In this document: positions 1,417 to 37,377 of the stretch, in pieces
Position numbering within the stretch: position 1 is the stretch's first letter
How the letters are laid out: each line of letters opens with the position of its first letter
Source of the DNA: Escherichia coli
Lineage (GTDB): Bacteria > Pseudomonadota > Gammaproteobacteria > Enterobacterales > Enterobacteriaceae
Strand: one strand, 5' to 3'
Assembly (NCBI RefSeq): GCF_003790525.1
Contig: NZ_CP033635.1
Length of the DNA stretch: 64,000 nt
Position numbers and translations under genes: made by a program
Notes under the pieces: generated by a model
The model's database searches: none
What the model was told of the DNA's origin: nothing
The model's input: the letters and a program-made list of their open reading frames with translations, nothing else

Positions 1417-2418
1417 TCAGAGTTTAGCGAATTTTTCGAGGGTGCGAATGAGCTGTGTGACGAAGCCATATTCGTTATCGTACCAGGCGACCGTTTTCAC
1501 CAGTTGTAAATCGCCCACGGCGGTAATTTCCGTTTGCGTGGCATCAAACACCGAACCGAAATGGCTGCCAATGATATCGGAAGAGACTATTTCTTCATCG
1601 GTATAACCAAATGACTCGTTATTGGTGGTTGCTTGTTTAAGTGCGTTATTCACCTCTTCGGCAGTCACTTTTTTTCCGAGAATGGACACCAGCTCAGTGA
1701 CCGAACCTGTTTTCACCGGCACGCGTTGCGCATGACCTTTCAGTTTGCCGCTCAGTTCCGGGATCACCAGACCAATGGCTTTTGCCGCACCTGTAGTGTG
1801 GGGAATGATATTTTCTGCCGCTGCACGTGAAGCGCGTAGATCTTTACCTCGCGGACCATCCACCAGTGACTGAGTGCCGGTATAGGCATGAATGGTCGTC
1901 ATCGTGCCGACTTCTATTCCGAAACTGTCGTGCAAGGCTTTGGCCATCGGTGCAAGACAGTTAGTGGTGCATGACGCCACGGAAACAATGGTGTCGTTGC
2001 CATCCAGTGTGTCGTCATTGACGTTATAAACGATGGTTTTCATTTCACCGGCAGGGGCGGAAATCAACACCTTCTTCGCACCAGCATCAAGGTGCGCCTG
2101 CGATTTCTCGGCGGAGGTATAAAAGCCAGTACATTCGACAATGATTTCTGCGCCTTTCGCTTTCCATGGAATATTTTTAGCCTCTTTTTCGGCGTAAACC
2201 GCGATACTTTTTCCATCAACGATAAGTGAATCTTCCGTAAAATCAACGCTCCAGGGGAACGGTCCGTAGTTTGAATCATGTTTCAACAGGTAGGCGAGAA
2301 TTTTTGGGGAAGTGAGATCATTAATAGCAACAATGTCTATGTTGCTTTTGACTTCAAGTAATCGACGCAACACCAGTCGACCGATACGACCAAAACCGTT
2401 AATACCAACTTTACTCAT
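1417..2418 (-). CDS. gapC: Glyceraldehyde-3-phosphate dehydrogenase C, intact 333-aa reading frame
   Basis: ORF translation has GAPDH hallmarks (NGFGRIGR Rossmann motif, SCTTNCLAP active site); uninterrupted here. Confidence 0.9.
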
Positions 2419-2606: not shown

Positions 2607-3137
2607 ATGGAAAGTAAATATTCAAGGTTACAAATCGGCATTCACTGGCTGGTCTTTTTGCTGGTTATCGCAGCGTATTGCGCAATGGAGTTTCGTGGTT
2701 TTTTCCCACGTGGCGATAGGCCGCTTATCAACATGATTCATGTTTCCTGTGGCATCTCAATTCTCGTGCTGATGGTTGTTCGTCTTTTGTTAAGGCTTAA
2801 ATACCCAACTCCGCCGATTGTACCTAAACCAAAACCGATGATGACGGGACTGGCGCATTTGGGACATTTGGTGATCTATCTCCTGTTTATTGCGCTGCCA
2901 GTGATTGGTTTGGTGATGATGTATAACCGGGGCAACCCGTGGTCTGCGTTTGGTATGACAATGCCTTATGCAGCAGAGGCCAATTTCGAACGGGTTGATA
3001 GCTTAAAGTGGTGGCATGAGACGCTGGCGAATCTGGGATATTTTGTCATCGGGTTGCACGCTGCGGCTGCACTGGCACACCACTATTTCTGGAAGGACAA
3101 CACACTTCTACGCATGATGCCGCGTAAACGTTCCTGA
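2607..3137 (+). CDS. cybB: Cytochrome b561
   Basis: ORF 2571..3137; internal start MESKYSRLQIGIHW at 2607 matches CybB N-terminus (176 aa, multi-TM haem protein). Confidence 0.92.
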   Translation: MESKYSRLQIGIHWLVFLLVIAAYCAMEFRGFFPRGDRPLINMIHVSCGISILVLMVVRLLLRLKYPTPPIVPKPKPMMTGLAHLGHLVIYLLFIALPVIGLVMMYNRGNPWSAFGMTMPYAAEANFERVDSLKWWHETLANLGYFVIGLHAAAALAHHYFWKDNTLLRMMPRKRS

Positions 3138-3147
3138 AGGATATTTA

Positions 3148-3211
3148 AAGAAAACGCCTGTACTAAAACCGACCCGTGGTACAGGCGAAGAATACGGGTC
3201 TACATCGGAAG
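3148..3211 (-). ncRNA. rydC: RydC small regulatory RNA (Hfq-dependent, pseudoknot)
   Basis: Reverse complement reads CTTCCGATGTAGACCCGTATTCTTCGCCTGTACCACGGGTCGGTTTTAGTACAGGCGTTTTCTT, the 64-nt RydC sequence as I recall it, in the cybB-ydcA intergenic region. Confidence 0.8.
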
Positions 3212-3381
3212 CGCCTATTATATTTATTTGTATGACAAATAAAACCATAATCCTGGTCCATACGTCCATCTGGCTTATCTTTAATCAATTCACCCGATCT
3301 TTGATCTCATCAACGGTATCAAAATAAACCAGCGTATAACGTTCAAATCGAACATAAGATTCGATAAACCATGGAGGTTAT

Positions 3382-3555
3382 ATGAAAAAACTGGCACTTA
3401 TCTTGGTTATAGGAGCGCTTGTTTCCTTTTATGCCGATGCCGGGCGCAAACCCTGTTCTGGTTCGAAAGGGGGGATCTCACACTGTACGGCAGGCGGCAA
3501 ATTTGTCTGTAATGATGGTTCTATTAGTGCATCGAAAAAAACATGCACTAACTGA
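3382..3555 (+). CDS. ydcA: Small secreted protein YdcA (57 aa, signal peptide)
   Basis: ATG at 3382 preceded by GGAGG; translation MKKLALILVIGALVSFYADAGRKPCSGSKGGISHCTAGGKFVCNDGSISASKKTCTN; below the 60-aa ORF-track cutoff. Confidence 0.85.
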   Translation: MKKLALILVIGALVSFYADAGRKPCSGSKGGISHCTAGGKFVCNDGSISASKKTCTN

Positions 3556-3600
3556 AGTGTAAAAGGGGTGCCATGAGAAAATGAATCTGCTAGTCAGATG

Positions 3601-3822: not shown

Positions 3823-3834
<12 letters not shown>

Positions 3835-3885
3835 TCGTTGGCCTCGGTTGATAGAAATATTGGTCGGGGCCTTCGTCTTTCTGAT
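3823..3885 (+). ncRNA. sokB: SokB antisense RNA (antitoxin of hokB/mokB); boundaries approximate
   Basis: Position antisense to the mokB RBS/start as in hok/sok loci; exact 5'/3' ends not determinable by eye. Confidence 0.35.
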
Positions 3886-34703: not shown

Positions 34704-35765
34704 ATGCATTTACGTCATCTGTTTTCATCGCGCCTGCGTGGTTCATTACTGTTAGGTTCATTGCTTGTTGCTTCATCATTCAGTACGCAGGCCGCAGAAG
34801 AAATGCTGCGTAAAGCGGTAGGTAAAGGTGCCTACGAAATGGCTTATAGCCAGCAAGAAAACGCGCTGTGGCTCGCCACTTCGCAAAGCCGCAAACTGGA
34901 TAAAGGCGGCGTGGTTTATCGTCTTGATCCGGTTACTCTGGAAGTGACGCAGGCGATCCATAACGATCTCAAGCCGTTTGGTGCCACCATCAATAACACG
35001 ACTCAGACGTTGTGGTTTGGTAACACTGTAAACAGCGCGGTCACGGCGATAGATGCCAAAACGGGCGAAGTGAAAGGACGTCTGGTGCTTGATGAGCGTA
35101 AACGTACCGAAGAAGTGCGTCCGTTGCAGCCGCGTGAGCTGGTAGCTGATGATGCCACGAACACCGTTTACATCAGTGGTATTGGTAAAGAGAGCGTGAT
35201 TTGGGTCGTTGATGGCGAGAATATCAAACTGAAAACCGCCATCCAGAACACCGGTAAAATGAGTACCGGTTTAGCGCTGGATAGCAAAGGCAAACGTCTT
35301 TACACCACTAACGCTGACGGCGAATTGATTACCATCGACACCGCCGACAATAAAATCCTCAGCCGTAAAAAGCTGCTGGATGACGACAAAGAGCACTTCT
35401 TTATCAACATCAGCCTTGATACCACCAATCAGCGTGCATTTATCACCGATTCTAAAGCGGCAGAAGTGTTAGTGGTTGATACCCGTAATGGCAATATTCT
35501 TGCGAAGGTTGCGGCACCGGAATCACTGGCTGTGCTGTTTAACCCAGCGCGTAATGAAGCCTACGTGACGCATCGTCAGGCAGGTAAAGTCAGTGTGATT
35601 GACGCGAAAAGCTATAAAGTGGTGAAAACGTTCGATACGCCGACTCATCCGAACAGCCTGGCGCTGTCTGCAGATGGCAAAACGCTGTATGTCAGTGTGA
35701 AACAAAAATCCACTAAACAGCAGGAAGCTACCCAGCCGGACGATGTGATTCGTATTGCGCTGTAA
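34704..35765 (+). CDS. yncE: Periplasmic beta-propeller protein YncE
   Basis: 353-aa ORF with signal peptide and repeated beta-propeller blades. Confidence 0.9.
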   Translation: MHLRHLFSSRLRGSLLLGSLLVASSFSTQAAEEMLRKAVGKGAYEMAYSQQENALWLATSQSRKLDKGGVVYRLDPVTLEVTQAIHNDLKPFGATINNTTQTLWFGNTVNSAVTAIDAKTGEVKGRLVLDERKRTEEVRPLQPRELVADDATNTVYISGIGKESVIWVVDGENIKLKTAIQNTGKMSTGLALDSKGKRLYTTNADGELITIDTADNKILSRKKLLDDDKEHFFINISLDTTNQRAFITDSKAAEVLVVDTRNGNILAKVAAPESLAVLFNPARNEAYVTHRQAGKVSVIDAKSYKVVKTFDTPTHPNSLALSADGKTLYVSVKQKSTKQQEATQPDDVIRIAL

Positions 35766-35846
35766 TAGATATGGCGAGGGTGAAAACGGAGAGACTTGCC
35801 TGACTTTTATCACGCCGTATCCGGCACCTTCGTCAGTAATTTGAAT

Positions 35847-35873
35847 TTGCCCGGCACGTAGCCGGGCAATTTT
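35847..35873 (+). terminator. Rho-independent terminator after yncE (ttgcccggc-acgta-gccgggcaa + T4)
   Basis: 9-bp perfect stem followed by TTTT in the yncE-ansP convergent gap. Confidence 0.7.
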
Positions 35874-35877
35874 GCAA

Positions 35878-37377
35878 TTAACTCGCCGTTTCAGGCTTAA
35901 ACACAATTTCCTGTTGTTCTTCATCTTCCTCGACGACTGGCGCAGTGCTGTGAATTTCAGCAACGCGTTTGCGCACACCAAACCAGCCTATAACCAGCAG
36001 AATACCGATAATCGGTAGCGCCGCGATAGTATAAGTCCCGTTCGGGTAATCGAACGCCATCAGCACCAGAACACTCAGTAAAAACAGTAATGTCAGCCAG
36101 GAAGTGAAGGGCGCGCCAGGCAGTTTAAAACTGACATCCGCTGCTTTGCCTTCTTTAATCGCTTTACGCAGGCGCATCTGGCACACGATGATAAACGCCC
36201 ATGAAGCGATGATTCCCAGCGACGCGAAGTTCAACACAATCTCAAATACGCGCGACGGCACCAGATAGTTGAGGAATACGCCGACGACATACACAACCAG
36301 TGTCGCCAGAATCCCGGCATACGGCACATGCTGACGACTCATTTTCGCCATAAAACTCGGTGCGGAACCGCCCATCGCCATTGAGCGCAGAATGCGTCCG
36401 GTGCAGTACAGACCTGAATTCAGGCTGGAGAGGGCAGCGGTCAGCACCACAATGTTCATAATGCTGCCGATATATGGCACACCCAGTTTAGAGAAAAACG
36501 TCACGAACGGACTTTGCCCCGCCTGATACGCGCTCCACGGCAATAGCATAACCAGCAACACCACGGAGCCGACGTAAAACAGGCCAATACGCCAAATCAC
36601 ACTGTTAATCGCTTTAGGCACCATGGTCTGCGGATCTTTACATTCTCCGGCCGCTGTACCCACCATTTCAATAGAGGCAAAAGCAAACACTACGCCCTGA
36701 ATCAACACCAGCGCAGGCAGCAAACCGTGGGGGAAGAAGCCGCCATTATCGGTAATTAAATGAAAGCCAGTGGTGTTGCCATCCAGCGGCTGACCGCTAC
36801 CGAGGAACACTGTACCCACGACCAAAAAGGTCACGATGGCGAGCACTTTAATAAGCGCAAACCAGAACTCCATCTCCGCAAACCATTTCACACCAATCAT
36901 ATTCATGGTGCCAACGATGGTCAGCGCAGCGAGCGCAAAGACCCACTGCGGCACGCCGCCAAACGCACCCCAGTAATGCATATACAGAGCGACGGCGGTG
37001 ATATCGACAATCCCTGTCATCGCCCAGTTGATGAAGTACATCCAGCCTGCAACGTAAGCGGCTTTCTCTCCTAAAAACTCACGGGCATAAGAGACAAAAC
37101 TGCCACTGGAAGGGCGGTGTAGCACCAGCTCACCCAATGCACGCAGAATAAAAAATGAAAACAGGCCGCAGATTAAATAGACCAGTGCCAGTGCTGGCCC
37201 CGCCATTTGCAGTCGGGCTCCTGCACCTAAAAACAAGCCGGTGCCAATCGCGCCGCCAATGGCGATCATCTGAACCTGGCGATTGCCCATCGCTTTGTGA
37301 TACCCCTCTTCGTGGGCATTAAGCCAGCGGCGTTTCGCGGCGTGCTGATCTGAAGTGTCGGTGTCGTGTTTACTCAT
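35878..37377 (-). CDS. ansP: L-asparagine permease (APC family)
   Basis: ORF 35878..37428; start at MSKHDTDTSDQHAAKRRWLN (499 aa), 12-TM amino-acid permease. Confidence 0.92.
   Translation of the reverse strand: MSKHDTDTSDQHAAKRRWLNAHEEGYHKAMGNRQVQMIAIGGAIGTGLFLGAGARLQMAGPALALVYLICGLFSFFILRALGELVLHRPSSGSFVSYAREFLGEKAAYVAGWMYFINWAMTGIVDITAVALYMHYWGAFGGVPQWVFALAALTIVGTMNMIGVKWFAEMEFWFALIKVLAIVTFLVVGTVFLGSGQPLDGNTTGFHLITDNGGFFPHGLLPALVLIQGVVFAFASIEMVGTAAGECKDPQTMVPKAINSVIWRIGLFYVGSVVLLVMLLPWSAYQAGQSPFVTFFSKLGVPYIGSIMNIVVLTAALSSLNSGLYCTGRILRSMAMGGSAPSFMAKMSRQHVPYAGILATLVVYVVGVFLNYLVPSRVFEIVLNFASLGIIASWAFIIVCQMRLRKAIKEGKAADVSFKLPGAPFTSWLTLLFLLSVLVLMAFDYPNGTYTIAALPIIGILLVIGWFGVRKRVAEIHSTAPVVEEDEEQQEIVFKPETAS

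Follow-up and report, generated by a model that had tools for sequence, protein, structure and literature searches.

RydC, an Hfq-dependent pseudoknot sRNA, and a likely YieP operator in the cybB–ydcA spacer of an Escherichia coli strain

The 64-mer CUUCCGAUGUAGACCCGUAUUCUUCGCCUGUACCACGGGUCGGUUUUAGUACAGGCGUUUUCUU, found on the minus strand at positions 3148–3211 of a 64-kb stretch of Escherichia coli DNA (the window, meaning the whole stretch that was analysed), is RydC, an already known Hfq-dependent sRNA which folds as a pseudoknot. Through RydC, membrane stress is linked to acid resistance and to the synthesis of cyclopropane fatty acids. The best explanation of the locus as a whole comprises a rydC gene with its promoter, repression by YieP, a terminator belonging to the RNA, a pseudoknot fold and targeting of cfa, and we put its probability at about 97%. 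Identity, family, synteny, pairing with compensatory changes, terminator orientation, promoter, motif match and target site come from the present analysis; expression, Hfq dependence, cfa activation and YieP repression are taken from the K-12 literature on the identical sequence. Nothing was found that contradicts the RydC explanation. The features of the locus are collected in Table 1.

Table 1. Features of rydC and its surroundings, in window coordinates
Feature	Position	Strand	Remark
RydC sRNA, 64 nt	3148–3211	−	RF00505 match, K-12 identity, single copy in E. coli
5′ single-stranded seed, RydC nt 1–13	3199–3211	−	nt 2–13 pair with cfa mRNA
S I 5′ arm, nt 12–18	3194–3200	−	7 Watson–Crick pairs, G12–C41 to U18–A35
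S I 3′ arm, nt 35–41	3171–3177	−	contains G37 and G39
S II/terminator stem 5′ arm, nt 25–33	3179–3187	−	9 pairs, C25–G57 to C33–G49
S II/terminator stem 3′ arm, nt 49–57	3155–3163	−	partner of nt 25–33
U23/U24 step	3188–3189	−	present; invariant in 9 alleles
U46/U47 step	3165–3166	−	present; invariant in 9 alleles
3′ U-rich tail UUUUCUU	3148–3154	−	terminator tail, follows S II
−10 box, perfect TATAAT	3217–3222	−	read from the sequence; 5 nt upstream of C3211
Candidate YieP operator ATTTGTATGACAAAT (15-bp near-palindrome)	3226–3240	both	15/15 motif match
cybB (cytochrome b561/superoxide oxidase)	2607–3137	+	convergent with rydC; stop codon 10 nt from RydC 3′ end
ydcA (57-aa predicted periplasmic protein)	3382–3555	+	divergent from rydC; 170 nt from RydC 5′ end

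Identity, position and annotation

An earlier note, written from the letters of this DNA, had recognised the 64-mer as RydC, placed it in the spacer between cybB and ydcA and named an Rfam scan as a way of checking it. When the whole 64-kb window was scanned with Rfam 15 at gathering thresholds, three matches were returned, among them a full-length match to RydC (RF00505; minus strand, 3211–3148; model positions 1–64 of 64; 92.5 bits; E = 5.2e-17). The score is about twice the gathering score of the family (48 bits), which places the match far beyond chance. The 64-mer is also identical at 64 of 64 positions to the curated ncRNA rydC (b4597) of K-12 MG1655, which lies on the minus strand at 1491442–1491506 in the gap between cybB (b1418) and ydcA (b1419). 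The K-12 feature is 65 nt long, corresponding to window positions 3148–3212, and carries one 5′ G more than the Rfam and published 64-mer. Base-by-base alignment over 300 nt revealed only four differences from K-12, all of them upstream, at −24, −43, −45 and −67 relative to G3212. The likeness to K-12 rydC thus covers the 64-nt sequence, the strand, the cybB–ydcA gap, the TATAAT element and the terminator. The two differ at −24, a change which gives the window a 15/15 match to the YieP motif against 14/15 in K-12.

The proposed placement was borne out as well. cybB is convergent with rydC at its 3′ side and ydcA lies at its 5′ side, as in E. coli and Shigella. Searches of relatives by tblastn identified cybB as the conserved 3′ neighbour of rydC, and published synteny describes cybB as conserved at the 3′ side with a 5′ neighbour that differs among species (PMC11340327).

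Of 5426 complete E. coli genomes, 5415 contain the 451-nt stretch around rydC, which is 100% identical between the window and E. coli SMS-3-5 (NC_010498.1). The RNA itself occurs as a single copy in 5411 of these 5426 genomes, the 64-mer being identical in 4063. Of the some 5400 matches to the region, five fall on plasmid-labelled records; these could be chromosomal replicons assigned to the wrong class, or plasmids that contain large pieces of chromosome.

The gene was expected to be invisible to ORF-based annotation, and so it proves: rydC, annotated in K-12, has no feature at its position in the RefSeq/PGAP record of SMS-3-5, and no annotated feature underlies the 64-mer in any sampled E. 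coli RefSeq record. The omission of this near-universal E. coli sRNA from RefSeq looks like a systematic annotation gap. Another sRNA, rprA, is annotated by PGAP in SMS-3-5 (locus L004, 7385–7492), while rydC is absent from the same annotation.

Pseudoknot fold and Hfq-contact elements

An explicit helix check found two interleaved helices, S I of 7 bp and S II of 9 bp, in which all pairs are perfect; A11 and G42 are unpaired in E. coli RydC. S I encloses the 5′ arm of S II in its loop, an arrangement which defines an H-type pseudoknot and leaves nucleotides 1–11 free. The Rfam consensus structure of RF00505 includes the S I helix. At the level of pairing, the window 64-mer would therefore adopt the RydC architecture, with interleaved S I and S II and a single-stranded 5′ end. 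The pseudoknot has been established experimentally for RydC. Shuffling that preserved dinucleotides produced an interleaved helix pair of this kind only 7 times in 5000. The nested minimum free energy fold of the 64-mer recovered S II alone and was no better than that of shuffled sequences (z = −0.48), a result that is uninformative here, nested folding being unable to represent the native pseudoknot.

The elements through which RydC contacts Hfq, namely the U23/U24 and U46/U47 steps and the U-rich tail after the terminator hairpin, are all present in the sequence. In the crystal structure that shows RydC bound to Hfq the two UU steps touch the lateral rim of Hfq, whilst the U-rich 3′ tail of RydC binds the proximal face; mutation of G37 or G39 destabilises the RNA (PMC4337610). 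Both Hfq binding and Hfq-dependent stability have been published for the identical RydC sequence (PMC4337610).

Variation among alleles and relatives

Two collection scans and a search of E. coli genomes yielded 103 copies of RydC representing nine distinct alleles, a small set drawn mostly from E. coli. The metagenome scan used flexible spacers. The seed and the outer bases of S II were prescribed in the scan patterns, and invariance at these positions arises by construction. Across the nine alleles 95.1% of cells are paired, as against 26–44% when the partners are slid by one to three columns. Two S II pairs are changed on both sides among the nine alleles; the changes in S I are one-sided wobbles. 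Natural S I variants keep their pairing, A13G giving a G·U pair and A35G a U·G pair, and G42U in E. albertii adds an A11–U42 pair, as in the Rfam consensus.

The double changes come from two 66-nt enterobacterial metagenome alleles, L038 and L076, in which U31–A51 is replaced by C–G and A32–U50 by G–C. A third swap in the same two alleles, of C33–G49 to U–A, falls out of register when the alleles are aligned. The RydC scores of the two alleles are 73 and 83 bits, within the 73–91 bits scored by RydC relatives adjoining cybB. The cybB homologue beside L076 shows 84% amino-acid identity over the full protein, and that beside L038 shows 91% amino-acid identity over a 45-residue fragment at a contig end. 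The covariation is real but thin, and is supportive of the pseudoknot rather than an independent proof of it.

The RydC loci of E. albertii (L007), Escherichia sp. (L011) and the two metagenome alleles, together with the Salmonella RydC of the literature, have in common the seed, the pseudoknot architecture, cybB as 3′ neighbour and, upstream, a TATAAT element with a 15-bp palindrome of YieP type. They differ from the window RydC by A13G, A35G and G42U and, in L038 and L076, by the swapped inner S II pairs and two extra nucleotides. A contig scan with a fixed 11-nt spacer returned only E. albertii, Escherichia sp. MOD1-EC7003 and four matches from unrelated phyla; the last four were treated as chance occurrences, stem complementarity being absent from them. 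The same rigid scan returned no representative of Salmonella, Klebsiella, Shigella, E. fergusonii or E. coli. The E. coli representative was missed although the scan pattern fits the E. coli RydC sequence; perhaps RydC in the GTDB representative is a variant, or else the scan was incomplete.

Two other Hfq-dependent sRNAs, the activator ArrS and the repressor CpxQ, share with RydC the long cfa mRNA isoform as their target, and the ArrS site overlaps that of RydC on cfa and blocks RNase E (PMC6755755). Both are unrelated to RydC in sequence, locus and fold, RydC alone having a pseudoknot and a seed at the extreme 5′ end. Neither ArrS nor CpxQ lies in the 64-kb window.

Promoter and candidate YieP operator

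The region upstream of the RNA contains a perfect TATAAT as the −10 box of a sigma-70 promoter and lacks a −35 box, and a consensus promoter scan requiring both hexamers finds nothing at rydC. The rydC promoter has been published in the same terms, with a perfect −10 and no obvious −35 (PMC11340327). In K-12, rydC is repressed about 20-fold by YieP, a member of the GntR/FadR family, and genetic repression has also been found in Salmonella (PMC11340327). The main text of that study contains no YieP operator, EMSA or footprint for rydC. Its authors found no known YieP sites in RegulonDB, and noted that the YieP ChIP-exo regulon does not include rydC (PMC11340327).

The published YieP ChIP-exo motif is atTTGTaTGAcaAAT (PMC7642389). 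Positions 3226–3240, read on the plus strand, match this motif at 15 of 15 positions, and this is the sole exact match in the 64 kb. The site spans −14 to −28 relative to G3212, nearly the whole of the spacer between the −10 box and a would-be −35, so a bound YieP dimer would be expected to exclude RNA polymerase. Exact copies of the site were found in 90 of 111 fetched loci, including those of E. albertii, Escherichia sp., L038 and L076, and the arrangement TTTTATTTGTCATACAAATAA(A/G)TATAAT is kept even in the latter two. K-12 has T for C at 3236 (plus strand), a low-information position of the motif, which reduces its match to 14/15. A 50-nt query over the site found the window allele exactly in 3945 of 5415 genomes (~73%) and the K-12 allele in 1237 (~23%).

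It is likely, judging from motif and placement, that 3226–3240 is the YieP operator which represses rydC, through direct binding. To the fuller proposal, that the 15-bp palindrome is a direct YieP operator silencing rydC and that the G/A polymorphism at −24 makes the strength of repression strain-dependent, we would give even odds.

The seed and its cfa target

The conserved 5′ seed CUUCCGAUGU is present in the window RydC. The cfa gene lies outside the window; the SMS-3-5 copy is at 35299–36447 of locus L004, on the minus strand, and its 5′ UTR is identical to that of K-12 from −300 to +30 except at −144. Nucleotides 2–13 of RydC pair with the SMS-3-5 cfa mRNA at about −110 to −99 (UCUACGUCGGA), with one G·U pair. 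In E. coli, RNase E cuts the cfa mRNA between G−100 and A−99, within GG|AUUAU (PMC6755755), and the edge of the RydC–cfa duplex coincides with this published cut. The energy of the duplex is not significant, 111 of 1000 shuffled seeds being as good; since it is unexceptional, the support for the pairing lies in its position at the mapped RNase E site. Activation of cfa by RydC has been published for the identical K-12 sequence.

Nucleotides 7–12 of RydC (3200–3205, minus strand) form an AUG followed directly by UAG, a start–stop pair with no visible Shine–Dalgarno sequence. The pair sits in the most conserved part of RydC and is probably meaningless.

Terminator orientation and alternative readings

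The earlier note had remarked that RydC overlaps an inverted repeat which would otherwise look like a terminator of cybB. The repeat is real and does overlap RydC, its arms being those of S II, but it does not qualify as a canonical terminator of cybB. The S II hairpin is followed on the minus strand by UUUUCUUUA, with seven U in nine, whereas on the cybB-sense plus strand the same hairpin is followed by AAGAATACG (AAGAAUACG), with one U in nine; the U-tract occurs on the minus strand only, and the repeat is thus oriented as RydC's own terminator. A terminator scan reported a minus-strand site at 3186–3172, which reflects a weak alternative pairing (G26–U40 to U31–A35) and was rejected as the real one. 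The loop of the real RydC terminator is 15 nt, above the limit of that scan. The reading that the repeat is simply an intrinsic or bidirectional terminator of cybB, with the RydC match incidental, can appeal to its start 17 nt beyond the cybB stop codon, to the failure of the scan to find any other plus-strand terminator-like site in 2900–3600, and to an A-rich run, AAAGAAAA, ahead of the plus-strand stem, a feature of some bidirectional terminators. Set against it are the single U of the cybB-sense strand and the fact that a bare terminator leaves unexplained the invariant seed, the second helix, the TATAAT element, the YieP motif and the Rfam score, and we consider this reading very unlikely. 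A partial role of the hairpin in stopping cybB transcripts is possible, as an addition to the RydC terminator rather than as an alternative to it. Transcripts of cybB probably either continue through rydC in antisense orientation or terminate there with low efficiency. As cybB has no canonical sense-strand terminator before rydC (3138–3260, plus strand), read-through RNA would form a perfect antisense to RydC and could titrate it in a cis-antisense or sponge-like interplay.

Two further readings concern what the region produces. It might encode a small protein, either from a 53-codon ORF at 3108–3269 or from a 41-codon ORF at 3163–3288, both on the minus strand. Both frames exist mechanically, and K-12 and one further E. 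coli have the longer one intact. In E. albertii, however, this longer frame has GAG as its start and stops short; in Escherichia sp. L011 its start is ATA with a stop after it; and in L038 and L076 it is interrupted by internal stops. The RNA is nevertheless conserved. The ATG of the frame, at 3269, also lies upstream of the sole promoter element, and the ORF extends, in antisense, into the coding sequence of cybB. The 53-codon ORF was rejected as a coding gene, its frame not being conserved while the RNA is, and a protein-coding reading of the region has next to no probability. The sequence might instead be a silent relic, present but unexpressed or non-functional in the window strain. In wild-type K-12 grown under standard conditions RydC is undetectable, or barely detectable unless yieP is deleted (PMC11340327), such that rydC may be silent under most conditions, and the perfect 15/15 operator candidate of the window may repress more tightly than the K-12 allele. 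Tight repression, however, is regulation and not loss; the RNA, the −10 box, the terminator and the cfa target site are intact and identical to their functional K-12 versions, and the near-universal single copy (5411 genomes) argues for selection. A relic is accordingly improbable, to much the same degree as a bare cybB terminator, and a functional rydC gene remains the preferred reading.

Proposed mode of action

On this preferred reading, a sigma-70 promoter with a perfect TATAAT and no −35 would drive rydC transcription on the minus strand. YieP would normally hold this promoter off, most likely by way of the 15-bp palindrome in the spacer. Transcription would stop at the S II hairpin and the UUUUCUU that follows it, and the resulting 64-nt RNA is predicted to fold into an H-type pseudoknot (S I of 7 bp, S II of 9 bp) with nucleotides 1–11 free. 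Hfq would bind the U-tail and the two UU steps, as published for the identical sequence. The free seed would then pair with the long isoform of the cfa mRNA, which has a 212-nt 5′ UTR, at about −110 to −99. This pairing would mask the RNase E site at −100/−99, stabilise the cfa mRNA and thereby raise the level of cyclopropane fatty acid synthase.

Other features of the window

The gapC gene (1417–2418, minus strand) is intact and codes for a type I glyceraldehyde-3-phosphate dehydrogenase of 333 aa. The SMS-3-5 annotation lists it as a functional 'gap' CDS, whereas in K-12 MG1655 it is a pseudogene (b4493). A match to the Rfam 'sok antitoxin' model (RF01794; 3771–3922, minus strand; 105 bits; 152 nt) falls on the strand that is sense for hokB/mokB, whereas sokB as curated in K-12 is 57 nt long and comes from the opposite, plus strand, at about 3825–3881 of the window. 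Here the RF01794 model seems to have picked up the strand of the hok leader and not the antisense RNA. A full-length SECIS_3 selenocysteine insertion element is found at 59599–59657 on the plus strand (84.3 bits; cut-off 63), presumably within a formate dehydrogenase gene, which we take by map position to be fdnG.

Implications

As a further instance of RydC in another E. coli strain, the locus teaches no new mechanism. What is new is the assignment of a likely operator, with its split between alleles, and the gap in RefSeq. Although over 99% of complete E. coli genomes contain the gene, RefSeq/PGAP leaves it unannotated, an example of a gene missed by ORF-centred annotation. Two published data sets, taken together with the window sequence, pinpoint the probable operator of rydC, and K-12, in which the experiments were done, carries the minority, imperfect allele of it.
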